A stretch of 64,000 nucleotides of DNA, taken from Halobacteriota archaeon (GTDB lineage Archaea; Halobacteriota; Syntropharchaeia; Alkanophagales; Methanospirareceae). Every line of letters starts with the position of its first letter. Position 1 is the first letter of the stretch. A program made the position numbers and the translations under genes. The notes beneath the pieces were generated by a model. It was given only the letters and a program-made list of their open reading frames with translations. It had not been told where the DNA came from and did no database searches. Where the stretch lies: assembly GCA_049287525.1 (NCBI GenBank), contig JBAQFZ010000008.1:23541-87540 (forward strand). The letters are read 5' to 3'. Below, in pieces: positions 11,546 through 59,433 of this stretch.

Positions 11546-13675
11546 ATGAAACGAACCATGACGGTGATGAGTGCAATTTTAAAACACTGGACACTTAAAG
11601 CACTACCTCTTTCTCTGTTGCTTATTGCATCTCTCTTCTCGCGCCATCTCGCTCTCGTTTCCGCGATTATATTCACTCTTTTCGTCCCGGGCTACATAAT
11701 AGTAGAGTATTACTTCAAAGACTTGAATATACAGGAGAAAATACTATTATACCTGCTACTCAGCGTGTTGATTTCTACACAACTTATTTACTGCCTCTCG
11801 CTTGCTTTTGGCTATTCCGGGCATACGATTCTGATTGCATTTGCCGTTTTGCTTGCTTCTCTTATCCTTATCCCTATCCCTATCCTTATTCTCAAGCATC
11901 ACACGAAACGAGAACCCCAGAATTTACATCTACGCTCGCTGAAAGGTGTGCTGATAAGTGCCGTGATTGCGTTATTCGCTTTCTTCGTGCTCAGCCAAAG
12001 TGTCTGGGTCTGGTATCAGAACCGCATCATTTTGACTGGCTCTAACTGGCAAGATACGCCTATGCACTACGCGATAATCGAGAGCATAAATAACGGCAAC
12101 TTTCCACCGCAGATGCCTTATTACGCGGGCGTTGAGATGCGCTACCATTACCTCGTGGATTTTCACACTGCGATTTTAGAAGAAGCTTTTGGTGCGTTCC
12201 TACCGCGTTTAATCGTGTTTACAAACGCATTTTTCGTGTTCCTCTTTGCGCTATCGCTATACGTGCTCGCATCGTATCTGAAGAACGAAAGAGCCGGTGT
12301 TTATACTGTACTGCTCGGAACGCTTGGTGCCGGTTTCTCGTACTTTCTCTTCTTCCACGCACTCTTCTCCGGGCGGGTTGAACTCACGACGAATTATGCG
12401 TATGAATATGGTAAGTTCTTCACCGTGCCCCCAATATTTGATAATTTATTACAGCAGCGTCCTCAGCTCATGGGACTGCCCACGCTAACTACTGCTCTTT
12501 ATTTCTTCTACCGTGGTTCATCACGTTCACACGCAGGTAAGCGTGAAATAGCGCTAGCAGGCTTGTTAACGGGTCTATTGTTCCCTTTTCACATGCTCGC
12601 CTGCTTTTCCGCACTCCTGCTGTGCTCATTGCTGCTCTTAAAGAAGTTTTTATGCACCCGTTTAGAGAGCACGAGCACCAACTTTTATGAACTTTATTTC
12701 TTCGTATTCTCCCTGCCCCTTATCTTACCCCACCAGATTCCAATGTTTGTCGGGAACGGTCCGGGCGATAGCCTCATCGGACTAAACCTGCCATGGGCTT
12801 TTTATTTCGTAAAAGGCAGACCTCTTTTGTTTTATCTTGCCAATTTGGGCTTGCCCTTTTTACTCGCTATTGCCGGCTTCTTCAAGAAATCCGTACATCC
12901 ACACAGCTTCTTTGTCTATTCATGGCTGTTCTTAATGCTTGCACTTCCGAACTCCATCTCTTTTACACCAAATGTCTGGGATATGTATAAGTTCTTTCAC
13001 TATGCGTGGGTCGCAATTGCAATCGCTGCCGGCGGTTTTCTCGCGGATATTTCGCTTACCGGCATAATAAGAAGTCCAAGGCGCCGTAAGGTGTTAGTCA
13101 CAGCCGCAATTACGCTGCTGCTCGTCTTTTCTATCTTCACTTCCGCGTTAGTGGCGACCTGGAATTTATCTACCCGCTATTCCTGCGCGGATGCCTGCGA
13201 ATATGCGACTGGACTATGGGTACGCGAGAACATCCCGGAGCGGGCGGTATTCCTAACCTGGTACTCCATACATACGCCAGTGACCATGATAGGCGGGAGA
13301 CTGAGGGTGCTTGGTTATGTAAATTGGGCTTATGGACATGGATTTGATATGTGGGGGCGTATGGCGGATGTAGAACGTGCGTACAGAGGTAATATCTCAG
13401 AAACACGGGACGTTATGCGTAAATATGATGCAAACTACGTGTATGTAGGAGAAGAAGAACTGAAGAACGCACCGGGGTGTCTCAATAAATTTGAACATTG
13501 TAAGCAGCTTGAGCTGGTTTACGAGGACCTTTCGGGGAAGAACTATATATTTAAAAGTAGAACTCAGACGAACGCCACAGATGCATCCACCCATTTCAAT
13601 AACACATCCCATCTCCACACGAAATGTACCCGAAAAGTATATAATAGGTTAAAACAACCTGTAATTAGCATATAG
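11546..13675 (+). CDS. large polytopic membrane protein, putative GT-C-type glycosyltransferase or membrane remodelling protein
   Basis: 709 aa, about 13 predicted TM helices plus a C-terminal soluble domain. No confident family signature is visible by eye. Sits immediately upstream of the surface adhesin gene. Confidence 0.4.
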   Translation: MKRTMTVMSAILKHWTLKALPLSLLLIASLFSRHLALVSAIIFTLFVPGYIIVEYYFKDLNIQEKILLYLLLSVLISTQLIYCLSLAFGYSGHTILIAFAVLLASLILIPIPILILKHHTKREPQNLHLRSLKGVLISAVIALFAFFVLSQSVWVWYQNRIILTGSNWQDTPMHYAIIESINNGNFPPQMPYYAGVEMRYHYLVDFHTAILEEAFGAFLPRLIVFTNAFFVFLFALSLYVLASYLKNERAGVYTVLLGTLGAGFSYFLFFHALFSGRVELTTNYAYEYGKFFTVPPIFDNLLQQRPQLMGLPTLTTALYFFYRGSSRSHAGKREIALAGLLTGLLFPFHMLACFSALLLCSLLLLKKFLCTRLESTSTNFYELYFFVFSLPLILPHQIPMFVGNGPGDSLIGLNLPWAFYFVKGRPLLFYLANLGLPFLLAIAGFFKKSVHPHSFFVYSWLFLMLALPNSISFTPNVWDMYKFFHYAWVAIAIAAGGFLADISLTGIIRSPRRRKVLVTAAITLLLVFSIFTSALVATWNLSTRYSCADACEYATGLWVRENIPERAVFLTWYSIHTPVTMIGGRLRVLGYVNWAYGHGFDMWGRMADVERAYRGNISETRDVMRKYDANYVYVGEEELKNAPGCLNKFEHCKQLELVYEDLSGKNYIFKSRTQTNATDASTHFNNTSHLHTKCTRKVYNRLKQPVISI

Positions 13676-13703: not shown

Positions 13704-15752
13704 ATGAAGGGAAGAGCGATATTTATTGCAGCGATTTTAGTGGTATCTATTGTTGCTTTGACGGGTGTTGTGAGCAGCGTAGCAGCGACGGAAAAGATAG
13801 ATTTGTTCCTGTTAATAGATGGATCTGGTAGTGTCGCGGCGGAGGACTATATAAATCAAACGAGCGGCTATGCCGCGGCTATTGATAATGAATCGATTGT
13901 TCCACAGGACGGCTCTGTCTCGATTTGCGTGATTATGTTCGGCTTTAAGCCGGGTGGTGTGTATAATCCTCAACTTATGCCTTATAATGTATATAATTAC
14001 GCTAAGGTGATTGTTCCTTACACCACAATCACGAACGCAGCGGTGGCAAAAAGTGTTTCCGAAACGATAAGTAATACGAAGCAGCCGGGGGATGGGACAC
14101 CAATAGAAGCGGCATTCCATGTAGCGATTGAGGAGTTAAAGAAAGCAGTCAAAGAGGGTAAAATTGAACTGAATAAATCTACACAAAAGATAGATATATC
14201 CTCAGATGGACGCCCAAACATGATGCACTTACGGGACTTCTATGGCAAATTTAGAGATGAAAAAGACAAAGAAGCGGTATACAAAGCGTTTGATGCGAGA
14301 ACCGAAGCAATAGCGGCAGGATTTGACGAAATCAATGCGCTTGGTGTGGACCTCAAAGACACAACACGGTCTTATCCGTATAACCGTGAATTCCTGGAAG
14401 ATATGGTTTTGCCACAGCCTTGTGACACAGAGCCGCCAGGCTTTTTCATGGAGACGAGCAGGGCGGATTTTCCGAAGACATTAAAAGAGAAGATAAAAAT
14501 AGAATTACACCCATTTATCAGCGTCAATAAGAGTGTCAGTAAAATATTATGCAATCCCGGTGATGTACTGACCTATACGATAAATTATAGCAACACGAAT
14601 AACGTAAACCTGACAGAAGTCGTTTTAACCGACCCGATTCCTGCTACTACTACTACTTTAGTCTCAGGAAGCATATCAAATGGGGGGACGGTATCGTTGG
14701 ATGGCGTGATTACCTGGAACATAGGCGAGTTGCACGTAGGAAAAGCGGGCACGCAGTCGTTCCAGGTAAGGGTTCACGACCATCTCACAAACGGGACGAT
14801 AATCACGAATACCGCCACGATAGCGAGCAATGAAACAGGACCGGTCAGCGACTCGGTGAACACGACTGTTATATCTCATCCACATATCAGCATCACTAAA
14901 AGCGTCGGTGAAATATTATGCAATCCCGGTGACGTGCTGCACTATACGATAAATTATAGCAACACGAATAACGTAAACCTGACAGAAGTCGTTTTAACCG
15001 ACCCGATTCCTGCTACTACTACTTTAGTCTCAGGAAGCATATCAAATGGGGGGACGGTATCGTCGGATGGCGTGATTACCTGGAACATAGGCGAATTGCA
15101 CGTAGGAGAATCGGGCATGCAGTCGTTCCGGGCAAGGGTTCACGACTCCCTCGCAAACGGGACGATAATCACGAATACCGCCACGATAGCGAGCAATGAA
15201 ACAGGACCGGTCAGCGCCTCGGTGACCACGACTGTTATAGTGCCGAAAATTTTTGAACTATCAGCCTATAAGGCGGTTGATAAGATGTTTGCATCACCAA
15301 ACGAGACGCTCTGCTACCAGATACAATACAAAAATACCGGAACGGAGACGCTCACGCACACTGAGGTAAAAGATACGATACCAGAGAACACCACTTACAT
15401 AGCGGGAAGCATGGGTCTAAACGGTGAAGGTCTAACCGATGGAGCCGGTGATGACGCAGGAAGCTATTACGCAGGGAACAAGACGTTGATATGGGATATA
15501 GGTACATTGGAACCCGGTGAAGGCGGGGATGCGACCTTTAAAGTCACAATAAACGCATTTGTACCCGGAGGAACAATCATACGCAACACCGCTATCCTGA
15601 CAACTAATGAGACATTACCTATTAATCGGACGGTAATAACAAAGGTCAGACCGCCGATACTACTACCAGTGCTGACGTCAGTGGGTATCGCGGTCTTGAT
15701 CGGGCTGCTGAGTCTGGTTGCAATACGCGGTATGAGTGGAAGGCGAAGATAA
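13704..15752 (+). CDS. secreted vWA-domain + DUF11-repeat surface protein with C-terminal TM anchor
   Basis: Signal peptide; vWA MIDAS motif DLFLLIDGSGSV; two near-identical ~122-aa DUF11-type repeats (CNPGDVL.YTINYSNTNNVNLTEVVLTDPIPATTT); C-terminal PPILLP + TM + RRR. Confidence 0.7.
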   Translation: MKGRAIFIAAILVVSIVALTGVVSSVAATEKIDLFLLIDGSGSVAAEDYINQTSGYAAAIDNESIVPQDGSVSICVIMFGFKPGGVYNPQLMPYNVYNYAKVIVPYTTITNAAVAKSVSETISNTKQPGDGTPIEAAFHVAIEELKKAVKEGKIELNKSTQKIDISSDGRPNMMHLRDFYGKFRDEKDKEAVYKAFDARTEAIAAGFDEINALGVDLKDTTRSYPYNREFLEDMVLPQPCDTEPPGFFMETSRADFPKTLKEKIKIELHPFISVNKSVSKILCNPGDVLTYTINYSNTNNVNLTEVVLTDPIPATTTTLVSGSISNGGTVSLDGVITWNIGELHVGKAGTQSFQVRVHDHLTNGTIITNTATIASNETGPVSDSVNTTVISHPHISITKSVGEILCNPGDVLHYTINYSNTNNVNLTEVVLTDPIPATTTLVSGSISNGGTVSSDGVITWNIGELHVGESGMQSFRARVHDSLANGTIITNTATIASNETGPVSASVTTTVIVPKIFELSAYKAVDKMFASPNETLCYQIQYKNTGTETLTHTEVKDTIPENTTYIAGSMGLNGEGLTDGAGDDAGSYYAGNKTLIWDIGTLEPGEGGDATFKVTINAFVPGGTIIRNTAILTTNETLPINRTVITKVRPPILLPVLTSVGIAVLIGLLSLVAIRGMSGRRR

Positions 15753-15797
15753 ATCGTCTTCCCTTTTTGCTTTTTCTTTTAATTTTTTATAGAATTT

Positions 15798-16418
15798 ATG
15801 AGCGTGCAAGCAAAGGGGAAAGTGCGAAACGCACAGCGCAAGAAGAGGGTAGCGCAAAACACTGAGGGTAACGGTAAAAGCCATGCTAATTTATTAACCG
15901 CGGTATTGGAAAAAGCAAAAGAGAACGAGGAAGCGATAAAATACGTGGCGCGTTTCTTAGCTCTTTGTTTCGCGTTCTACATTGTCTATTATATCATAAT
16001 AGTTAGCGACACTATGGTGATGGCTAATATGAGGCACGTTACCACCACAATTTTGGGTGCTATCTTCTCTTTAGCCGGGCTGAAAGTAGTAGAGAGGGCT
16101 GATGTGTTATCCATCAATGGCTTCTCAATGGAGATAATAGATGAATGCACCGCAGTTTTCTCCGCTATCGTTTATTGCTCCTGCGTATTAGCATATCCCG
16201 CAACGCTGAAGCAGAAAAGTCTTGGTATCCTCTTCGGCGTGCCAAGCCTGTATGCGATAAATATCCTTCGCATTTTCCTATTGGCTCTTGTTGGCATGCG
16301 CAATCCCGATATGTTTAAATTTATGCATGTGTATCTCTGGCAGGCGTCTTTTATCATATTCGTGGTCGTGCTCTTTCTGATATGGCTAAAGATGGGGGTG
16401 ACAGATGGCGAAGGATAA
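15798..16418 (+). CDS. exosortase/archaeosortase-family membrane protein (short form)
   Basis: 206 aa with about 5-6 TM helices. IDECTAVFS resembles the exosortase active-site Cys motif, and AINILRIF matches the ANxxR(V/I) motif of the EpsH/archaeosortase family. Lys-rich N-terminus. Confidence 0.45.
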   Translation: MSVQAKGKVRNAQRKKRVAQNTEGNGKSHANLLTAVLEKAKENEEAIKYVARFLALCFAFYIVYYIIIVSDTMVMANMRHVTTTILGAIFSLAGLKVVERADVLSINGFSMEIIDECTAVFSAIVYCSCVLAYPATLKQKSLGILFGVPSLYAINILRIFLLALVGMRNPDMFKFMHVYLWQASFIIFVVVLFLIWLKMGVTDGEG

Positions 16419-16971
16419 GGGCAAGAAGGGGAAGCGGCTAACAGGTACAAAAAAGGTGGATAAGCCGGCGGCAAATGGTAAATGTGATATTTTAAGTTTG
16501 AGCAGGAATCAAATTTTATTGTTCCTGCTGGAGTTTCTGGTTGTCGCCGTGGTATTTTTAGCTGTCTGGTACTACGTCGGGGAGTTCTATCAGAGTGCTA
16601 TTTTCTTCTTCGGGCGTCCCATTCTGCTTGCGATGGGCTGTCCTCCACTGCTCTTAGGTAGCTGTTTTTCTCATATCGCACAGGAAGGTGGATACCTTGT
16701 AAATTTCAATTTAGTGCCGTTCGTAGCATTAGCAATAGCAACGCCTGAGTTAATGCTGCGGAAGAGGCTTGAAATGCTTGCAATAGGCGTCCCGGTCCTA
16801 TTTCTTCTGCATCTCCTCGACCTCATGGCGCATTTCCCTGCTGATATTTACGATTCCGCGCTTGCCGAGATGGTGGTGTATTCAATAGGAGTCAGCGATG
16901 TAGCGGTGCCGTTTATTATATGGTTTGCAATAGCTGTCTCGTTCCGCAGTGCGAAGAAAGTAATTGCTTAG
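16405..16971 (+). CDS. membrane protein with Lys-rich N-terminus (possible second half or partner of the sortase-like protein)
   Basis: 188 aa with about 4 TM helices. Overlaps the upstream gene by 14 nt. N-terminus is MAKDKGKKGKRLTGTKK. Confidence 0.4.
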   Translation: MAKDKGKKGKRLTGTKKVDKPAANGKCDILSLSRNQILLFLLEFLVVAVVFLAVWYYVGEFYQSAIFFFGRPILLAMGCPPLLLGSCFSHIAQEGGYLVNFNLVPFVALAIATPELMLRKRLEMLAIGVPVLFLLHLLDLMAHFPADIYDSALAEMVVYSIGVSDVAVPFIIWFAIAVSFRSAKKVIA

Positions 16972-27190: not shown

Positions 27191-29476
27191 ATGGAAACAA
27201 AAAAGAGAGGAGGAACGATAACAGGTATTGCTCTGGTAGCGATTATGGTCGCTTCAGTTATGCTCGCAATGGTCGCGAGCACCGCAGCGTACAGCACAGG
27301 CGGAAAATACAATATCATTAACAACTCAACAACACCACCTGCACAACAAGTACTGACAGGACAGGATCTGAAATTCATAAAGGGTACTGATGCTCTTGAG
27401 TGGACATCGGCACCGACAGTAATGCAGTATGGATCTAATGGTAACCAAGAACATACGTATCCATCGGCAGTGGGAGACGGTGGGGACTTTTACATCGACA
27501 ACGTGGACTGGGGTACGTCAGGTACATTTTATGTGAACGGTGGTGCGACCGTAAGTGCTGCCTACTGCGCACAGCTTTCTGTCAGTGACCCAAAAATACC
27601 GCTGCAGCTAAAAGTAGGTGATAAGATAGTGACGTCACTTGCCAAGGGTACGCCAGGATTTCACACAGATGTTGGAGGTAGAAATCTGTTCCCCGAGGAT
27701 GGTGTAGACCTCGTGATTATGGGTCCCAACGGGCAGATAACAACAAAGAACGGCCAGAATTTTAAAGGCATAAATGTGAGTACATTGACCGATTATACAA
27801 GTGTGAACTTTATTAACACCACAGGCTGGGACGTAGGGCATTACACCTTCCAGGTGAAGACCAAACCGGAAAACGCATGTGGCCTGGATACACAGAGCAC
27901 ACTGCGGGAGATGAACATAATAAAAGCTGCGGTAACAATAACAGCGGAGCCGACAGAAGTAGCGGAACTCACAACCGTGAAACTCACAGTAACTGGTGTT
28001 GCCGGTACGCCGATAAATGTACTAGAAGACACTTTAAGTCCGCATGCTTATTTCCCTGCAGGGCTTAATGACAACCAGGGACCAAAGAATAACAATTTCA
28101 CTGATACAATAGACAGTGACGGCACGCGGACCTACGCAGTGGAGTTCAACGATACCGGTGCATACACAATTAAAGTGACGGATTTAAACGATCTATCAGG
28201 AGATACATATGACACCGTTGACATTACCGTTACAGAGAAGGGAGTTACCTTTGACGTGCCAAGCACAGTAGTTATCGGGCAGCGGTTTACGATAAAAGGG
28301 ACTGCAAATACAGGCAATATGGTTACGGTTGCCGTGGATGACGAGGTGGTGTTGAAACTGAATAATATCGTAATAGACGAGAACAACGAATTCTCGGAGG
28401 AGATAGATACAAGCGCAGATGCAGCACCCGGGGCATTCAAGCTTCCAGGTTCTGTGAGGTTGAAGGCGTACATTGACTATCCAGGGGGCACTGGTCCGGT
28501 ACTCCAAGGCATAACAGACGATGGCTCGTTTGCGATATTAATGACAAAAGGCGAATTAACGGCTGAACTGTCAACAAAAAGCGTAGCGAAGGGCGATGAT
28601 TTCACAATCATCGGTAAGGCAAAAGGCTCAAAGAACGTGAATATATTGATAGTCGCACCAAAGGGTTTCAGTGGTTCAAACATAGAAACAAACGGTAAGG
28701 AGATGTATTACACATCAACGTCTGTCACAACTACCGATGATAGTTTCTACAAGAAGATCACCGTGAACGATGACGTGAACTCGGGCAAATATCTCGTGAT
28801 GATACTCAGCGCGGGAAGCGACGACAAATGGGGAAAGAGCGGTTACGATACACTTTATAACCCAAGTAAGCCAACGGATACTAATACCGCTTTAGGTCAG
28901 TATACATTAAGCACCAGGACACAGGAAGGGATGTTGGAGATAGTAAAAGATATGAGTGCTTTAAGCGATGACCTCCTGTGGATAGGGCTCGTAAACGTGG
29001 AATCGCCGTATGTGATTCTTAACCCAATAGCAGAGGTGAACATTGGAGAACCTATGGAAGTAACAGGAACTACAAACAGAAAGGATGGATATACCATAGT
29101 TGTCACAGCTAAAGGACCGACAGAGCTAACTCCGGCGACCGTACCGGTACATAACAGTACGTTCAACGCAACGTTAGACACTTCAGATGCTAAGGTAGGC
29201 GTGTACGTAGTGACGGCAGACGATGGTGATGGTAATACAGATACAGAGCAGGTGAGCATAGGAGGAGCAGCAGTACCGGCTGAGACGCCACTAACATCGC
29301 CAGCAGCAGAAACACCAATGCCAACAGCAGAAGCACCAACGCCAGCAGCAGAAACACCAATGCCAACAGAAGAAGCACCAACACCAACACCAAAACCAGT
29401 ACCAGGATTCGTAGGTGTGTTCGCCATTGCAGGCTTGTTAGCGGTTGCCTACCTATTACTGAGGAGAAGGAAGTAG
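27191..29476 (+). CDS. PGF-CTERM surface (S-layer-like) glycoprotein
   Basis: Signal peptide; 700-aa beta-rich ectodomain; Thr/Pro-rich linker AETPMPTAEAPTPAAETPMPTEEAPTPTPKP; PGF motif + TM + RRRK at the C-terminus (archaeosortase A sorting signal). Confidence 0.8.
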   Translation: METKKRGGTITGIALVAIMVASVMLAMVASTAAYSTGGKYNIINNSTTPPAQQVLTGQDLKFIKGTDALEWTSAPTVMQYGSNGNQEHTYPSAVGDGGDFYIDNVDWGTSGTFYVNGGATVSAAYCAQLSVSDPKIPLQLKVGDKIVTSLAKGTPGFHTDVGGRNLFPEDGVDLVIMGPNGQITTKNGQNFKGINVSTLTDYTSVNFINTTGWDVGHYTFQVKTKPENACGLDTQSTLREMNIIKAAVTITAEPTEVAELTTVKLTVTGVAGTPINVLEDTLSPHAYFPAGLNDNQGPKNNNFTDTIDSDGTRTYAVEFNDTGAYTIKVTDLNDLSGDTYDTVDITVTEKGVTFDVPSTVVIGQRFTIKGTANTGNMVTVAVDDEVVLKLNNIVIDENNEFSEEIDTSADAAPGAFKLPGSVRLKAYIDYPGGTGPVLQGITDDGSFAILMTKGELTAELSTKSVAKGDDFTIIGKAKGSKNVNILIVAPKGFSGSNIETNGKEMYYTSTSVTTTDDSFYKKITVNDDVNSGKYLVMILSAGSDDKWGKSGYDTLYNPSKPTDTNTALGQYTLSTRTQEGMLEIVKDMSALSDDLLWIGLVNVESPYVILNPIAEVNIGEPMEVTGTTNRKDGYTIVVTAKGPTELTPATVPVHNSTFNATLDTSDAKVGVYVVTADDGDGNTDTEQVSIGGAAVPAETPLTSPAAETPMPTAEAPTPAAETPMPTEEAPTPTPKPVPGFVGVFAIAGLLAVAYLLLRRRK

Positions 29477-52449: not shown

Positions 52450-52812
52450 TCACGCTAATCTAATAGCGGGAATCCAATCGCTATATCTTCTCCCGTTTGC
52501 ATCCACAAACTCCGTGCAGGTTATGAATCCCGTGGAAGTTGAATGATTACCGGTATGATGAATCTGCGGATAAGAACCTGTTTCTATGACGTAGGTGTAT
52601 TCATTGTTTTTATACAGCGTGACAGAAGGAGTAATTGTTATGTTATGCCAGTCGCTCGAATAGCCGTTCCCGGTGCCACTTGCTATCAAGTCGCCATTTT
52701 CATATATCTTGATAGACTCGGTGTGCCCACCAGTGCCTGCACATGGATAGGTGTACACCCTGCTAAATCTGATGTCGTAAGACGGTATGATTTTGCCGTC
52801 GTGCTTGCCCAT
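52450..52812 (-). other. detached C-terminal domain ORF of surface-protein paralog A
   Basis: MGKHDGKIIPSYDIRFSRVYTYPCAGTGGHTESIKIYENGDLIASG... is about 85% identical to the last 120 aa of the intact paralog at 56371..59433. Confidence 0.55.
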
Positions 52813-52884
52813 GATGCTTGGATATGGGTTAGGTGGCGAACCTGTGTCAAATATTTTCTCTTCCGGGGGTTTAATGTAATTATT

Positions 52885-55800
52885 TCAGGATTCCATCAGT
52901 GGATAATAATCTTTATCGGGATCTATGATGTATGGATTATCCCAAATACCATCATTATTGGCATCCGTGGAAGTGAAATTATGCCAGTAGTTGCCGAGAT
53001 AGTTTGTGTAAGTACTACCCATGTAAGTGTAGTTTATTTTTTCGGGTGAGTTCCAGATGTTTGTTGATTTGTAGGAATAAACATTTTCGGTGTTGTTTAT
53101 GAAATTGTTGAGATATATTTTGTTGCTGTTTGAATACCAGATGGAGATGCCGTAATGGTTGTTTGAGGAGCAATTGTTATTTGAAATGCTATTGTTGTTA
53201 GAATCCAAGAAGAGGTAGATGCCATTCCGGTTGTTTGAGCAGTCGTTGCTCGATATGCTATTGTTGTTAGAATCTGAGAGGTAGATGCCATCTGAGTTGT
53301 GTGAGCAGTTATTGTTCTTTATGGTAATGTAGGAGGAGTAAGCGGTTTGTATGCCGATACTTGCATTATTTAAGTTCTGATTTTCAACTAAAATGTTTTT
53401 GCAATTAATGAGTATGACCTGACCTGCACCATCAGGAATTATTCCTCCTTCGATGCCCCTCCAGTAATAAACTGGTTTCCCATTCACTGTGTTGCTTTTG
53501 TCTATCTCATGCTCGTAATGGGTTGGTAAATAACCCCGAATAACTATTCCGTTCCCCAGCATGATATTACCTGTTAATTTGTTGGTGCTTGAATACGAGA
53601 GGTAGATGCCATTCCCGCTATTATTTTCTGCCGTGTTATTTGCTATTGTGCTCCCGCTTGATGACAAAAGTCTAATACCCTGGTAATGGTTAGAGTTTGC
53701 TATGTTATTGCAAATCTCATTACTGGTTGATAAGTTTAGAGAGATCCCGTGGTAGTCATTGTTTGAGGCGTCATTATCGTTTATCCTGTTGTTGTTTGAC
53801 TTCTTAAGGAGGTAGATGCCATCGACTCTGTTGTTCTTAGCCGTGTTGTTTTCGATGCTATTATTATTAGACGACCATAATAGAATGCCACTTTCATTAT
53901 TTGAATTGACAACGTTGCCTGTAATTGCATTGCGATTACTGGATTCGCGCAATCGAATTCCATCAAATTTGTTGTTATTTGCTGTGTTGTTTTCGATGCT
54001 ATTATTGTTAGATGACCATAATAGAATGCTGCCACCACCCGAGATGTTTGAGCAATTGTTGCTCGATATGCTGTTGTTGTTAGAATATGAGAAATAGATG
54101 CCATAGTTTTCGTTGTCCCCGGCAGTATTGTTTGTAACATTGTTATTATTACTAGATTCGTGTAACCAGATGCCATGTTTATTATCAGAGGCTAAGTTTT
54201 CTATTAAAGTGTTATTGTTAGATGCCCACAATAGAATGCCACTTTCATTATTTGCGTTGACTACGTTGCCTTTAATTGTATTGTGATTACTGGTTTCGCG
54301 CAATCGAATTCCATCAAATTTGTTGTTATTTGCTGTGTTGTTTTCGATGCTATTATTGTTAGATGACCATAATAGAATGCTGCCACCACCCGAGGTGTTT
54401 GAGCAATTGTTGCTCGATATGCTGTTGTTGTTAGAATATGAGAAATAGATGCCATCGTTTTCGTTGTCCCCGGCAGTATTGTTTGTAATATTGTTATTAA
54501 TAGATTTGTATAACCAGATGCCATATTTATTATCAGAGGCTAAGTTATCTATTAAAGTGTTATTGTTAGATGACCACAATAGAATGCCACTTTCATTATT
54601 TTGCATTACGACATTATTAGTTATCCAGGAGTTATTGGATTTGTAGAGGTATATTCCATAAAGACCATTTTGAACTGTTAGCCCAGAAATTGAAGTGTTA
54701 TCCACAGTAATAAATATACATGATTGAGCAGTATTGGCTGCTTGTATTATAGAATCCCCATTTGGGGCATAGATTGTTAGAGGTTTATTTATTACCAGGT
54801 TCTCATTATAAGTTCCAGGATAAACTTCTATTGTGTCGCCGGGCATAGCAGCTTCCACTGCCTCTTGTATAGTTAGATATTCTTCGGGAACACAGATCTT
54901 TTTTGGGACGTGTGTCTTTAATTTGATAAGAGTGAGATTGCTTGCCGTATCATCTTCAGGCCATAATAGTGGATGCTGTGGATTCGGGTAGAAGTTTTCT
55001 GAATATTCAACTATTTTTGGAAAAGAGTAATCACTTAATTCTCGAATGGAGATTCTACTATCACCATCAAGGTCTGCAGCTCCCCACAATCCCTGTACAA
55101 TATAATAAGTAAATACGCCATTTTTCAATGCACTTGCCCATATTCCTGTTTCATTCATTCTGCTGGATGCTAATACCATACAATTGGCTTTTTCAAGGTC
55201 CATAGCGAATCCATCGAGTTCATACGTATTATACGTTTCTGTTGCCTCGCTTATTTGATATGGAGTGAGAACCCCTCCACTATAACATGCACTTAAAATT
55301 GCTACTGCTTTCTTTGCTTTCACCTCACCAATCCATTCTTCAAGTTCGTCATCTATTATCTCAGCGTCAAAAACTCTTAGTGACTCGTCAATACCATCAG
55401 CCTCGTCGCCATTATGATCAAGTGTATCATTATCTCCATGTCCGGAGAAAAAGAATAGACAGGTATCCTCCGTACCAGCGTTATTAGCCATCCACTGTAT
55501 CGCATTCCTGATGTTTGCCTTTGTTGCACTTTCATTAACTAAAAATCGGATATGGCTCGCCTCCCAATTATCTGATGCTCGAGTGAGAACATTGTATATA
55601 TCATGTGCATCCTGATACGCGTATACAGATGTAGCTCCAACTATAACAGCCCAATATTCCTCTGCTGGAGTGACAGTAGCTTCTTCGAATGTTATGCCGG
55701 TATAATTAGCATTTAAGGAGATGCCCTCGCCCTCAATTTCCCCACAGACCGACCCGTTGAAAAACAATCCAAGCATAAGCATCAGTCCTATAACGAAAAT

Positions 55801-55893
55801 CGTCGCAATCTTACCCAGTAAGCCTGTTTTTCTTTCCTCGGGTCCTCTTATCCAATTCTTCATAGCCGGTTTTCGTTGAGAATTCTTTTTCAA
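52885..55893 (-). CDS. secreted legumain-like (C13) peptidase domain + PbH1 parallel beta-helix repeat protein, paralog A (C-terminal domain separated by stop)
   Basis: Signal/TM; His-Gly FFFSGHG and Cys ILSACYSGG catalytic dyad of the caspase/legumain fold; over 20 Asn-rich 23-aa PbH1 repeats; a TGA where the paralog reads through. Confidence 0.6.
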   Translation of the reverse strand: MKKNSQRKPAMKNWIRGPEERKTGLLGKIATIFVIGLMLMLGLFFNGSVCGEIEGEGISLNANYTGITFEEATVTPAEEYWAVIVGATSVYAYQDAHDIYNVLTRASDNWEASHIRFLVNESATKANIRNAIQWMANNAGTEDTCLFFFSGHGDNDTLDHNGDEADGIDESLRVFDAEIIDDELEEWIGEVKAKKAVAILSACYSGGVLTPYQISEATETYNTYELDGFAMDLEKANCMVLASSRMNETGIWASALKNGVFTYYIVQGLWGAADLDGDSRISIRELSDYSFPKIVEYSENFYPNPQHPLLWPEDDTASNLTLIKLKTHVPKKICVPEEYLTIQEAVEAAMPGDTIEVYPGTYNENLVINKPLTIYAPNGDSIIQAANTAQSCIFITVDNTSISGLTVQNGLYGIYLYKSNNSWITNNVVMQNNESGILLWSSNNNTLIDNLASDNKYGIWLYKSINNNITNNTAGDNENDGIYFSYSNNNSISSNNCSNTSGGGSILLWSSNNNSIENNTANNNKFDGIRLRETSNHNTIKGNVVNANNESGILLWASNNNTLIENLASDNKHGIWLHESSNNNNVTNNTAGDNENYGIYFSYSNNNSISSNNCSNISGGGSILLWSSNNNSIENNTANNNKFDGIRLRESSNRNAITGNVVNSNNESGILLWSSNNNSIENNTAKNNRVDGIYLLKKSNNNRINDNDASNNDYHGISLNLSTSNEICNNIANSNHYQGIRLLSSSGSTIANNTAENNSGNGIYLSYSSTNKLTGNIMLGNGIVIRGYLPTHYEHEIDKSNTVNGKPVYYWRGIEGGIIPDGAGQVILINCKNILVENQNLNNASIGIQTAYSSYITIKNNNCSHNSDGIYLSDSNNNSISSNDCSNNRNGIYLFLDSNNNSISNNNCSSNNHYGISIWYSNSNKIYLNNFINNTENVYSYKSTNIWNSPEKINYTYMGSTYTNYLGNYWHNFTSTDANNDGIWDNPYIIDPDKDYYPLMES

Positions 55894-56123
55894 ACCTTTA
55901 CCCTCTCCTTCACAAGTTCCACTTTTGAGAACTTAAAACTCATCTCCGCAACTGAAGAAGGACTTAATCTCTCTTTTGCATCCAGTATCTCTATACCAAT
56001 TATTTCGTTATTTTTATCAAAGTCAATGATTATCCCTTCTCTGATCTCCTCGCTTATTTCATATTCCCCTTCCCTAAATTTTATATACATCGCATCCGCT
56101 TCAGGGTCGTATCTTATTTCCAT
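55890..56123 (-). CDS. DUF2283 family protein (putative antitoxin)
   Basis: MEIRYDPEADAMYIKFREGEYEISEEI is the DUF2283 signature. Confidence 0.5.
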   Translation of the reverse strand: MEIRYDPEADAMYIKFREGEYEISEEIREGIIIDFDKNNEIIGIEILDAKERLSPSSVAEMSFKFSKVELVKERVKV

Positions 56124-56127
56124 TTTC

Positions 56128-56364
56128 TCACCTCCTTAAATACCTCCTTGGGTCAGCCCTATATGCCGAAATAACAATTATTTCTTCCCCATCCTTTTCA
56201 TAAATAACTCTCAAAAGTTTATCATCAAACACTCTATGTGCTATTTTCCGATTACCATATCTATTAACGACTTCTATTGGATTCTTTATTGTCATTTCCA
56301 CTTCCTTTTTACTAATTTTCCGCTCCTTTAATTGCTCTTCTGCATGTTTGTAATATTTTATCAT
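56128..56364 (-). CDS. DUF4258 family protein (putative toxin)
   Basis: 78 aa; MIKYYKHAEEQLKERKISKKEVE...; paired 4 nt from the DUF2283 gene. Confidence 0.5.
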   Translation of the reverse strand: MIKYYKHAEEQLKERKISKKEVEMTIKNPIEVVNRYGNRKIAHRVFDDKLLRVIYEKDGEEIIVISAYRADPRRYLRR

Positions 56365-56370
56365 TCTTTA

Positions 56371-59300
56371 CTAAAGAAACAACTTAATAGCTGGTATCCA
56401 GTCATAATAAATTCTCCCATTAGCGTCAATGAATATATCGCAAGTGATTGTTCCCATGCCATTGGCTACTTCTAAGCTCTCGGTATGGTGAATCTGCGGA
56501 TAAGAGCCTGTTTCTATGACGTAGGTGTATTCATTGTTTTTATACAGCGTGACAGAAGGAGTAATTGTTATGTTATGCCAATCGCCTGCATAGCCGTTCC
56601 AGGTGCCGCTTGCTATCAATTCGCCATTTTCATATATCTTGATAGACTCGGTATGCCCACCAGTGCCTGCACATGGATAGGTGTACACCCTACTAATTCT
56701 GATGTCGTAAGACGGTATGATTTTGCCTTCATGTCTGCCCATGATGCTTGGATATGGGTTCGCAGACGAACCAGTGTCAAATATCTTCTCCTCTTCAGCA
56801 GGTTTAACATAATTCTCCCAGGGCATAACCAGTGGCTGGTAGTCCTTATCCAAATCTAAATCTATGATGTATGGATTATCCCAAATACCATCATTATTGG
56901 CATCCGTGGAAATGAAATTATGCCAGTAGTTGCCGAGATAGTTTGTGTAATTACTACCTTTATAAGTGTATATTATTTTTTCGGGTGAGTTCCAGATGTT
57001 TGTTGAATTCTCGGAATAAACATTTTCGGTATTGTTTATGAAATTGTTGAGGTAGATTTTGTTGCTGGTGGTGTTCTGAAGGACAATGCCTCCAATGCTG
57101 TTGCCTATATTGTTTCCGGTAACAGCATTGCGGGTAGAATAGTTGAGGAATGAGATGCCGAGTTCGTTACCGGTGACTTCATTGTCAGTAATTGTGTTGC
57201 CATCAGAATACTCGAGGATGGAAATACCCATGACGTTGTCGCTAATAGTATTGCCGGTGATGGCGTTGCTGTTAGATTCGTATAGAGAAACGCCACCCCA
57301 TTCATTGATGAGGTAGTTGTTCTGTATTCTTGAGTTACTGGTGTTGAAGAAACCAATACCTACGAAGTTGTTTATAAGATTCAAGTCTTTTACTGTGATA
57401 TTGTCGCAGGAGATGCAGTAAACTGTGCCTGCGTTCGAGGACGAATCAATGACATTACCAGAAGCGCCTACAAGGTAGTAAATTGGCTTTCCATCTACGA
57501 GGTTGCTGGTATCAATGTCGTTGTTAAAGTCTGAGTAGCTATCGCCATCAGTTCCAAAGTTCCAGAGATTACCCATCATCAAATTATTCCTTAAAGTATT
57601 GTTGCTGGAATCCACCACATAGATGCCACTTAGGCTGTTGTTACTGGCATTGTTGTCTGTAACTATGTTGCTGTTTGATGCGTTAAGATAGATGCCACTC
57701 TCTCGATTGTTATCTGCCGTGTTGTTTGCGATTATGTTCTCGTTTGATGTCCAAAGTCCAATACCCTCGTAATAGTTAGAGTTTGCAATGTTATTGCGAA
57801 TCTCATTACTGGTTGAAAAGTTTAAAGATATACCGTTGTAGTCATTGTTTGAGACATAATTATCAGTTATCCGGTTATTGGCGGACTCATTGAGATAGAT
57901 GCCATTATCTCGATTGTTCTCTGCCGTGTTGTCTGCGATTATGTTCTCGTTTGATGACAAAAGTGCAATACCCTCGTAATAGTTAGAGTTTGCAATGTTA
58001 TTGCGAATCTCATTACTGGTTGATGAGTTTAGAGATATCCCGTTGTAGTCATTGTTTGAGACATAATTATCAGTTATCCGGTTATTGGCGGACTCCTCGA
58101 GATAGATGCCATTCTCTCGATTGTTATCTGCCGTGTTGTTTGCGATTATGTTCTCGCATGATGACAAAAGTACAATACCCTGAGCGAGATTGTTTAAGGC
58201 CTCGTTATTGGTTATTTTATTGTTGTTTGAGCCAAATAGGTATAGTCCAAAAAAACCATTTTGAAATGTTAGCCCAGAAATTGAAGTGTTATCTACAGTA
58301 ATGAATATACATGGTAAAGTCCGATCAGCTTGTATTATCGAATGCCGAGCTCGGGCATTTATTATCAGTGGTTTATTTATAATCAAGTTCTCATAATAAG
58401 TGCTAAGAAAAGTCCCAGGATAAACTTCTATTGTGTCTCCGGGCATAGCAGCTTCCACAGCTTCCGGAATCGTGCGATATTCCGCGGGAACACTGATCTT
58501 TTTGGGGACGTACGTCTTTAATTTAATAAGAGTGAGATTGCTTGCCGTATCATCTTCAGGCCATAATAGTGGATGCTGTGGATTCGGGTAGAAGAATTCT
58601 GAATATTCAACTGTCCTTGGAAAAGAGTAATCACTTAATTCTCGAGCGGAAATTCTACTATCACCATCAAGGTCTGCTGCTCCCCACAATCCCTGTACAA
58701 CATAATATGTAAATACGGAATTTTTCAATTCAAATGCGATCCATCCAATTTCATTCATTCTGCTGGACGCTAATACCATGCAATTGGCTTTTTCAAGGTC
58801 CATGGCGAATCCAAATCCATCGAGCTCATTCGACGTTTCTATTGCCTCGCTTATTTGATATGGAGTGAGAACTCCTCCACTATGGCATGCCTCTAAAATT
58901 GCAACGACTTTCTTTGCTTTCACCTCACCAATCCATTCTTCAAGTTCGTCATCTATTATCTCAGCGTCAAAAGTAATTAGTGACTCGTCAATACCATCAG
59001 CCTCGTCACCATTATAATCAATTGTATCATTTTCTCCATGTCCGGAGAAAAAGAATAGACAGGTATCCTCCGTACCAGCGTTATTAGCCATCCACTGTAT
59101 CGCATCCCTGATGTTTGCCTTTGTTGCACTTTCGTTAACTAAAATTTGGATATGGCTCGCCTCCCAATTATCTGATGCGCGAGTGAGAACATTGTACATA
59201 TCCCGTGCATCATGATACGCGTATACAGTAGTAGCTCCCACTATAACAGCCCAATATTCCTCTGCTGGAGTCTCAGTAGCTTCTTCGAATGTTATGCCGG

Positions 59301-59433
59301 TATAATTAGCATTTAAGGAGATGCTATCGCCCTCAATTTCCCCACAGACCGACCCGTTGAAAAACAATCCAAGCATCAGCATCAGCCCTATAACGAAAAT
59401 CTTTACAATCTTATCCATCGCTTCTTCTTCCAC
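56371..59433 (-). CDS. secreted legumain-like (C13) peptidase domain + PbH1 beta-helix repeat surface protein, intact paralog B
   Basis: 1020 aa; FFFSGHG / ILEACHSGG dyad; PbH1 repeats; conserved ~120-aa C-terminal domain. Confidence 0.7.
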   Translation of the reverse strand: MEEEAMDKIVKIFVIGLMLMLGLFFNGSVCGEIEGDSISLNANYTGITFEEATETPAEEYWAVIVGATTVYAYHDARDMYNVLTRASDNWEASHIQILVNESATKANIRDAIQWMANNAGTEDTCLFFFSGHGENDTIDYNGDEADGIDESLITFDAEIIDDELEEWIGEVKAKKVVAILEACHSGGVLTPYQISEAIETSNELDGFGFAMDLEKANCMVLASSRMNEIGWIAFELKNSVFTYYVVQGLWGAADLDGDSRISARELSDYSFPRTVEYSEFFYPNPQHPLLWPEDDTASNLTLIKLKTYVPKKISVPAEYRTIPEAVEAAMPGDTIEVYPGTFLSTYYENLIINKPLIINARARHSIIQADRTLPCIFITVDNTSISGLTFQNGFFGLYLFGSNNNKITNNEALNNLAQGIVLLSSCENIIANNTADNNRENGIYLEESANNRITDNYVSNNDYNGISLNSSTSNEIRNNIANSNYYEGIALLSSNENIIADNTAENNRDNGIYLNESANNRITDNYVSNNDYNGISLNFSTSNEIRNNIANSNYYEGIGLWTSNENIIANNTADNNRESGIYLNASNSNIVTDNNASNNSLSGIYVVDSSNNTLRNNLMMGNLWNFGTDGDSYSDFNNDIDTSNLVDGKPIYYLVGASGNVIDSSSNAGTVYCISCDNITVKDLNLINNFVGIGFFNTSNSRIQNNYLINEWGGVSLYESNSNAITGNTISDNVMGISILEYSDGNTITDNEVTGNELGISFLNYSTRNAVTGNNIGNSIGGIVLQNTTSNKIYLNNFINNTENVYSENSTNIWNSPEKIIYTYKGSNYTNYLGNYWHNFISTDANNDGIWDNPYIIDLDLDKDYQPLVMPWENYVKPAEEEKIFDTGSSANPYPSIMGRHEGKIIPSYDIRISRVYTYPCAGTGGHTESIKIYENGELIASGTWNGYAGDWHNITITPSVTLYKNNEYTYVIETGSYPQIHHTESLEVANGMGTITCDIFIDANGRIYYDWIPAIKLFL

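Follow-up and report, generated by a model that had tools for sequence, protein, structure and literature searches.

A probable surface-protein sorting cassette in an ANME-1 archaeon and the membrane partner of its sortase

How an ANME-1 archaeon may fasten an adhesin to its surface, and what part two small membrane proteins encoded downstream of the adhesin may play in this, is the question raised by the locus described here. The locus lies in a stretch of 64,000 nt from contig JBAQFZ010000008.1 (positions 23,541 to 87,540, Halobacteriota archaeon); the whole stretch is referred to as the window, and its first letter is position 1. Four open reading frames (ORFs) of 709, 682, 206 and 188 aa are arranged head to tail on the + strand. 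An earlier note, made from the DNA letters alone, had read the 682-aa product as an adhesin and the 206-aa product as an exosortase-like enzyme dedicated to it, followed by a second membrane ORF. These three ORFs were all found in the sequence as claimed, with the last two overlapping by 14 nt. Identical proteins are present at NCBI, on a 96,952-bp contig of a 'Halobacteriota archaeon' metagenome-assembled genome (MAG), where they are named 'DUF1194 domain-containing protein' (682 aa), 'exosortase H' (206 aa) and 'hypothetical protein' (188 aa). The nearest relatives are ANME-1/Methanophagales. We consider it likely that the adhesin, the 206-aa sortase and the 188-aa partner make up a three-gene surface-protein sorting cassette in ANME-1 (Methanophagales), in which the adhesin is the substrate of the sortase; the exact role of the partner is proposed with lower confidence. 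The kind of system is already known and the enzyme is already annotated. Missed by current models are the variant of the sorting signal, the archaeal family of the partner, the probable paralogy of partner and sortase, and the fusions between the two.

The 206-aa sortase and the C-terminal tail of the adhesin

The earlier note had staked its reading on two points, a match of the 206-aa protein to exosortase-family hidden Markov models (HMMs) and the conservation of the C-terminal tail among homologous adhesins. As for the former, the protein passed the exosortase/archaeosortase signature TIGR04178 (58.5 bits, cut-off 23), the Pfam family PF09721 Exosortase_EpsH (38.2 bits, cut-off 25.7) and, narrowly, the exosortase H (XrtH) model TIGR04177 (90.7 bits, cut-off 86). 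It failed the archaeosortase B (ArtB) model TIGR04144 (100.5 bits, cut-off 150) and obtained 34.7 bits on the ArtA model TIGR04125 (cut-off 75). The same behaviour towards the models was shared by 36 aligned homologues, all of which matched TIGR04178, and the best of their TIGR04144 matches (E 6e-36) was also under the cut-off. A wider alignment of 149 sequences consisted of the window protein and the 148 nearest representatives of 50%-identity clusters. In this set 68 sequences reached approximately the level of the XrtH cut-off, and genuine ArtB members (best E 5e-67) were present among the 148 representatives. Since both kinds of members occur in the set, the clade is placed between the two named families, archaeosortase B and exosortase H, and the enzyme with it. 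The naming is in conflict as well, with 'exosortase H' used by NCBI and archaeosortase B used by JGI for many of the homologues.

The Cys motif DECTA pointed out in the earlier note is present and contains Cys117 (nt 16146-16148). The Arg motif is present too, but it had been read as ANILRI and equated with ANxxR, while the sequence is A-I-N-I-L-R-I, so that the motif is NxxR with Arg158 (in NILR, 16269-16271). Both residues, together with His177 (16326-16328), were invariant in the 36 homologues; in the 149-sequence alignment Arg158 was invariant, and Cys117, Asn155 and His177 were conserved in at least 90% of the sequences. For ArtA of Haloferax volcanii it is reported that C-terminal cleavage depends on a conserved Cys and two Arg, and that a lipid is attached afterwards (PMC9263693). 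In the hydropathy profile of the window enzyme, a basic N-terminal tail is followed by four hydrophobic segments. If the N-terminus is cytoplasmic, Cys117, Arg158 and His177 would be located near the outer face of the membrane, where the substrate motif would sit. The unusual basic N-termini noticed previously in both membrane ORFs are real, with 8 and 10 Lys and Arg among the first 30 residues, and they are conserved in homologues. A search of the window for a second copy of the sortase or the partner, or for ArtA, found none, and no solved structure was related in sequence to either protein.

The C-terminus of the adhesin reads ...RPPILLPVLTSVGIAVLIGLLSLVAIRGMSGRRR, also given as ...KVRPPILLPVLTSVGIAVLIGLLSLVAIRGMSGRRR. 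Its tripartite build of motif, transmembrane helix and RRR was as described in the earlier note; the conserved motif, though, is LPVLTSVG and not PPILLP. The latter was rejected as the signal, since the prolines ahead of the motif are not found at constant positions in the orthologues and only the last Pro of PPILLP falls in LPVLTSVG. The tail itself, [V/L]-P-[V/L]-[L/I]-x-P-x-G followed by a helix with a GLLS core and an Arg cluster, was kept in 24 of 24 close adhesin orthologues, which settles the second point of the note. Relative to the helix, P(-6), P(-2) and G(0) were fixed across the adhesin orthologues. The same tail was observed on unrelated cargo encoded beside related sortases, namely VWA, Choice_anch_L, CARDB-type, SdrD_B-type, PQQ beta-propeller and unannotated proteins; of the 16 loci surveyed, 10 had at least one motif-bearing cargo protein no more than 10 kb from the sortase. 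An ANME-2 locus with a fused sortase (L025) had the tail on a PQQ beta-propeller protein and on a protein of 1,678 aa. Within the window the adhesin was the sole protein with a [V/L]PxxxPxG tail.

The note had also placed the tail close to the VPxxxP-CTERM pattern. The 23 other orthologues and the neighbouring cargo have [V/L]PxxxP directly before the transmembrane helix. The window adhesin reads LPVLTS at this place, its upstream PPILLP is out of register, and it gave no match to the VPXXXP-CTERM model TIGR04143 (cut-off 30), on which the tails of relatives obtained 12.7-17.6 bits. Two IPTL-CTERM models, TIGR04174 (cut-off 20.5) and Pfam PF18203 (cut-off 20.8), found nothing in the window tail and gave 7.5 bits and 17.7-18.6 bits, respectively, for relatives, whose tails reached 22 bits on the midcut-by-XrtH model (cut-off 45). 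Compared position by position, the motif unites VPxxxP with three residues of IPTLxxWG, its Pro, Leu and Gly. In distant DUF11 homologues from bacteria, the C-terminal tail is of the classic IPTLSEWG type.

As a positive control for the PGF-CTERM model TIGR04126 (cut-off 24.5) we used the S-layer-like protein encoded at 27191-29476 (+), which passed with 25.3 and 32.4 bits. The adhesin tail gave no match and was discarded as a PGF-CTERM variant. Because the model passes the one protein and not the other, the genome encodes two distinct signals, in agreement with the distinction drawn in the note. The control protein, 761 aa long and S-layer-glycoprotein-like, showed in addition a sub-threshold match to the MEMAR_RS02690 S-layer family.

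The 188-aa partner protein

The partner has no Pfam domain and is unnamed in all sources. Its gene was found in 15 of the 16 surveyed loci, and in 14 of these 16, ranging from ANME-1 to Archaeoglobus, it is situated directly after the sortase gene or overlaps it. Fusions of the two were found among the 148 nearest representatives, 21 of which are single chains of 288-448 aa with a sortase domain followed by a partner domain, the latter matching the partner HMM with E-values down to 3.5e-18. Methanosarcinales and ANME-2 ('Ca. Methanogaster') MAGs are among the sources of these chains. The order of the domains in the fusions is the order of the genes in the pair, which is strong evidence that sortase and partner act together. 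The overlap and the basic N-terminus of the second membrane ORF had been recorded in the earlier note and hold; to these the present analysis adds the role of an integral, conserved and sometimes fused component.

Several comparisons, each weak but all in agreement, point to a common origin of partner and sortase. Aligned by hhalign, the two profiles matched in register (E 1.7e-4, probability 50%) with a score of 35.8, whereas none of 62 reversed or shuffled controls exceeded 28.5. When the sortase HMM was run against the other ORFs of the window, the partner was the sole match (E 0.0023). In the opposite direction, the partner HMM matched stand-alone sortase domains end to end and in register, and one member of the partner family gave a near full-length match to the pacearchaeosortase model. 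In hydropathy, too, the two proteins agree, with four segments in the same pattern and a basic N-terminal tail. The partner lacks the catalytic Cys, having N100-F-N102 in that region, and carries H136 and D139 in place of N155 and R158 of the sortase. Judged from these alignments, the partner is probably a Cys-less, diverged paralogue of the sortase. Its AlphaFold2 model had a pLDDT of 82.

A further relationship was indicated by the model NF041730 ('exosortase H-associated membrane protein', cut-off 35), which matched 21 of 44 members of the partner family, always in the same segment. This makes the partner a probable, though distant, relative of the XrtH-associated membrane protein rather than its equivalog.

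Some variation in this family was observed beyond the window. In one ANME-1 relative (L019, 10631-12500), the sortase and partner genes, which overlap elsewhere, are separated by an insertion of approximately 1.9 kb with small genes, one of them for a VapB-type antitoxin. Three partners (P0135, P0144 and P0147) have an extra cytoplasmic C-terminal extension with a zinc-finger-like motif CPxCG...H...H (e.g., YFCPVCGAEEEKVDIAKHIRAVHG). The extension also occurs in an ANME-2 fusion (P0457, residues ~330-390; L025 10001-11173), and the window partner is without it. The L025 contig, PQXF01000017.1 from Ca. Methanogaster (ANME-2), is 57.7 kb long and encodes two paralogous fusions of 389 and 390 aa. 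One of them is surrounded mostly by genes for PQQ/PKD/CARDB surface proteins of very large size; just upstream of the fusion gene are genes for a MotA/ExbB-like protein and a DUF2149 protein.

Proposed course of sorting and its rivals

The reading we prefer can be outlined as follows. The adhesin would be exported by means of its N-terminal signal peptide, and its C-terminal helix and Arg cluster would hold it in the membrane with LPVLTSVG at the outer face, the vWA/MIDAS head being carried on a stalk of three CLIPPER/DUF11 domains. The four-helix enzyme of 206 aa would then cleave the tail at the motif or close to it, using Cys117 with Arg158 and His177, and the new C-terminus would be transferred to an anchor, probably a membrane lipid if ArtA of Haloferax volcanii is taken as a guide. 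The Cys-less paralogue would act as a fixed partner, as suggested by the gene fusions; it probably heterodimerises with the enzyme and might help to hold the substrate helix or the acceptor. The dedicated sortase-substrate pair put forward in the earlier note thus gains support from the family HMMs and from the tail kept in the orthologues.

A number of points weigh against this reading. The sortase fails the ArtB cut-off and exceeds that of XrtH by less than 5 bits, and its AlphaFold2 model was of low confidence (pLDDT 67, pTM 0.49) and was not used for fold searches. The window tail alone among the 24 has Ser in place of the second Pro (LPVLTS), which could make the window adhesin a poorer substrate, and it is accepted by no curated CTERM model, with a faint match to midcut-by-XrtH as the only signal. 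Five of the 16 surveyed loci have no motif-bearing cargo nearby, and at one related locus the partner gene was absent within 10 kb. The scores for homology between sortase and partner are weak, as seen from the hhalign probability, and no member of the partner family passes NF041730, with 31.2 bits for the best and 11.8 bits for the window partner. Literature searches gave nothing with XrtH, 'exosortase H' or IPTLxxWG, and only two papers with a passing mention of ArtB/VPXXXP-CTERM.

Could the enzyme instead be the general archaeosortase of ANME-1, replacing ArtA and processing the abundant PGF-CTERM proteins, S-layer-like and Invasin_D3 ones, besides or instead of those with VPxxxPxG? A PGF-CTERM Invasin_D3 gene is located just upstream of the sortase or its cargo genes in nine related loci, and three loci (L005, L022 and L024) have a PGF-CTERM gene as the immediate neighbour of the sortase with no VPxxxPxG protein in view, although two of these, L022 and L024, end about 2.4-3.1 kb downstream of the sortase and cargo may lie beyond. 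ArtA was not found within the window, and one ANME-1 metagenome had no ArtA domain along with four PGF-CTERM and two 'EpsH-related' proteins (Timmers et al. 2017, PMC5244752). However, the metagenome in question is not complete, and two ArtA domains are listed for the second ANME-1 dataset of the same table (PMC5244752). The enzyme stays far below the cut-off of the ArtA model, the signals differ clearly from each other, and it is this sortase that the VPxxxPxG tail accompanies across cargo families and orders, so we regard a general sortase as unlikely. It is also conceivable that the tail is a mere C-terminal membrane anchor, the adhesin being an uncleaved type I membrane protein, with the sortase inactive or acting on other proteins and the gene order kept for other reasons. 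The failure of all curated sorting-signal models on the window tail, and its lack of the second Pro present in all other orthologues, would fit such an anchor. A bare anchor, however, needs no P-x-x-x-P-x-G at a fixed distance from the helix, and this motif is common to unrelated cargo families beside sortases in different archaeal orders. The invariant catalytic residues mean in addition that the enzyme is under selection, and this explanation appears very unlikely to us.

As for the 188-aa protein, it might be neither a paralogue nor a subunit of the sortase, and simply an unrelated, co-transcribed membrane protein, for example a transporter-like protein or an assembly factor. Against this stand the fusions, which join sortase and partner in one and the same order in 21 independent 50%-identity clusters, the gene overlap conserved from ANME-1 to Archaeoglobus, an hhalign score above all 62 composition-preserving controls, and the in-register cross-matches of the partner HMM and the pacearchaeosortase model. 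We find it improbable that the partner is unrelated, and return to the paralogous pair. A wider proposal can be made from it, tentatively and with somewhat more doubt than conviction: in the ArtB/XrtH branch, the short sortases with four helices may be obligate two-part machines, built from a catalytic subunit and its Cys-less duplicate, encoded by overlapping genes or as one chain. Such a machine would be pseudo-symmetric with about eight helices, and the dead copy would bind the substrate helix or the lipid acceptor. If true, this would be a pseudoenzyme-partner architecture for the superfamily, which we have not found described in our literature searches.

ANME-1 has no pure-culture isolate, and its envelope and its contacts to partner cells are poorly understood (PMC9012536, PMC5244752). 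The cassette offers one concrete ANME-1 surface adhesin together with the enzyme that probably anchors it. Dedicated models for the [V/L]PxxxPxG-CTERM signal and for the partner would improve the annotation of Methanophagales, Archaeoglobi and Methanosarcinales, and the fusions provide a clear and testable hypothesis on how small members of a structurally uncharacterised enzyme family are built.

Architecture of the adhesin, neighbouring genes and known systems

The coordinates of all features are listed in Table 1. The N-terminus of the adhesin has no twin-arginine motif, so its signal peptide, which matched the surface-glycoprotein signal-peptide model TIGR04207 below threshold, would be of the Sec type. 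The vWA domain with a metal ion-dependent adhesion site (MIDAS, DxSxS) claimed in the earlier note was confirmed by the DGSGS motif and the passed DUF1194 model, and the adhesin remained below the cut-offs of the generic VWA models PF00092 and PF13519. In the stalk, the DUF11 models PF01345 (120 bits, cut-off 24.6) and TIGR01451 (118 bits) were passed, each in three stretches. DUF11 has been renamed CLIPPER and is a CnaA-like stalk domain of fibrillar adhesins with an intramolecular Lys-Asn isopeptide bond (PMC12617251). The full adhesin used as a single-sequence query gave no match in the PDB; the profile of its repeats matched the crystallised CLIPPER domain 9IFR_A (E 3.8e-5). An invariant Lys of the repeats (K276, K399 and K523) is aligned with the 9IFR_A counterpart of the bond-forming Lys-715, and a nearly invariant Asp aligns with its LND motif, the isopeptide Asn lying outside the aligned stretch. 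Candidate isopeptide residues in repeat 1 are K276, D310 and N369, and the stalk is probably stabilised by isopeptide bonds.

The tandem duplication of about 0.37 kb reported in the earlier note is present in the stalk (period 366-369 nt, Tandem Repeats Finder score 1262). Its copies, 14508-14873 and 14877-15239, were identical at 337 of 366 nt (92%) with one 3-nt indel, and at 86% of the protein positions. The claimed 96% identity was reached solely in the best 100-nt windows, and the second coordinate is 14910 instead of 14911. Between repeats 1 and 2 we counted 19 non-synonymous and 7 synonymous differences (dS 0.084, dN/dS 0.87). Most adhesin orthologues have two CLIPPER domains without the duplication. 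Two related proteins of 660 aa (P0189 and P0190), about 55% identical to the window adhesin, have their own tandem duplications of the first CLIPPER domain, the copies being 95% and 82% identical. The domain has thus been duplicated repeatedly or homogenised by conversion, and a unique recent event was rejected. The duplication is real but not exceptionally recent; to call it very recent was an overstatement in view of the 92% identity, a dS of ~0.08 and the homogenised duplications of the related proteins.

Table 1. Features of the probable sorting locus, with positions counted from the first letter of the window
Feature	Residues	Position	Strand	Basis
709-aa polytopic membrane protein		11546-13675	+	ORF
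Adhesin precursor, 682 aa: signal peptide, vWA-like head, three CLIPPER/DUF11 stalk domains, C-terminal sorting signal		13704-15752	+	ORF, Pfam and NCBIfam domains
Predicted N-terminal hydrophobic signal peptide, MKGRAIFIAAILVVSIVALTGVVSSVAAT	1-29	13704-13790	+	hydropathy; sub-threshold TIGR04207 match
vWA-like (DUF1194) domain	32-268	13797-14507	+	PF06707 42.1 bits, cut-off 27
MIDAS, DGSGS	39-43	13818-13832	+	position of DxSxS motif
CLIPPER/DUF11 repeat 1, first duplication copy	269-390	14508-14873	+	tandem-repeat and domain analysis
CLIPPER/DUF11 repeat 2, second duplication copy	392-512	14877-15239	+	92% DNA and 86% protein identity to repeat 1
CLIPPER/DUF11 repeat 3, old copy	519-648	15258-15647	+	34% identical to repeats 1 and 2
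Signature motif, LPVLTSVG	654-661	15663-15686	+	in register with consensus [V/L]-P-x-x-x-P-x-G
Transmembrane helix of sorting signal, GIAVLIGLLSLVAI	661-674	15684-15725	+	hydropathy; conserved in orthologues
Basic cytoplasmic cluster, RGMSGRRR	675-682	15726-15749	+	tail comparison
T-rich spacer, 45 nt (TTTTTGCTTTTTCTTTTAATTTTTT), between adhesin and sortase genes		15753-15797	+	sequence
Short archaeosortase, ArtB/XrtH branch, 206 aa		15798-16418	+	HMM matches, invariant residues, hydropathy
Partner membrane protein, 188 aa		16405-16971	+	locus survey, fusions, hhalign, NF041730 matches

A GGAGGA ribosome-binding site is located 5' of the adhesin gene. The T-rich spacer behind it may act as an attenuator of read-through, and GGGGGTGA occurs within the 3' end of the sortase gene, just ahead of the partner start. 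The 709-aa protein stops 28 nt before the adhesin start on the same strand, and a TATA-like GTATATAATAGG is contained in the 3' end of its gene, ~60 nt ahead of the adhesin start. The protein belongs to no Pfam family and has a weak match to Chlor_Arch_YYY (39 bits, cut-off 300). As its gene is not found at the corresponding position in related loci, the 709-aa protein is probably not part of the cassette.

In nine related loci (L001, L002, L005, L017, L019-L022 and L024), a conserved gene pair is situated upstream of the sortase cassette, encoding a giant protein of 1,350-1,590 aa with no or faint Pfam matches and then an Invasin_D3 protein of 240-370 aa with a PGF-CTERM tail. Elsewhere in the window, a stretch of low GC content (0.38-0.40 compared to ~0.46 elsewhere) was observed at 52450-59433 on the - strand. 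Encoded in it are two proteins of about 1,000 aa (52885-55893 and 56371-59433) as well as an ORF of 120 aa (52450-52812). One of the large proteins, of 1,020 aa, and the 120-aa ORF have nearly the same C-terminus (...F[VI]DANGR.Y.DWIPAI[RK]L), pointing to a C-terminal module that is duplicated or mobile.

Among the known sorting systems, XrtH/IPTL-CTERM resembles the cassette in several respects. The window enzyme is above the TIGR04177 cut-off and already bears the XrtH name at NCBI, the adjacent small membrane partner is detectably related to NF041730, and DUF11 proteins are typical cargo in both. The signals I-P-T-L-x-x-W-G and that of the window family agree in Pro at position 2, Leu or Ile at position 4 and Gly at position 8. 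The window host, however, is archaeal, and its signal family has Pro at position 6 and no Trp; the tails fail both IPTL-CTERM models, the partner is under the NF041730 cut-off, and the ArtB model gives the enzyme more raw bits than the XrtH model. ArtB/VPXXXP-CTERM, known from Methanohalophilus mahii and other Methanosarcinales, shares the archaeal host, is the best model for the enzyme in raw bits (100.5), and has its V-P-x-x-x-P ahead of the helix in the tails of orthologues and neighbouring cargo. In contrast, the enzyme is well under the TIGR04144 cut-off of 150, and the tails obtain at most 17.6 bits on the VPXXXP-CTERM model (cut-off 30). The window adhesin has Ser at the second Pro, and a Gly two residues past the second Pro is conserved in the window family.

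ArtA/PGF-CTERM of Haloferax volcanii was the only archaeosortase with experimental work found in our literature searches, and it is the model for the proposed cleavage with subsequent lipid attachment (PMC9263693, PMC7157517). It shares with the window enzyme the superfamily, the conserved Cys and Arg residues and the tripartite logic of the signal, that is, a motif, a transmembrane helix and a basic cluster. ArtA is much longer (model length 271), with the window enzyme aligning to positions 73-199 only; the signal motif differs, and the further components reported for the ArtA pathway are PssA/PssD homologues and not a paralogue of the sortase. The adhesin itself is comparable to the fibrillar adhesins with CLIPPER stalks (PMC12617251; 9IFR) in its adhesive head, here vWA/MIDAS, its tandem CLIPPER domains and its C-terminal sorting domain, though its stalk is short with three domains. 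The PGF-CTERM system is represented separately in the window, by the protein encoded at 27191-29476.

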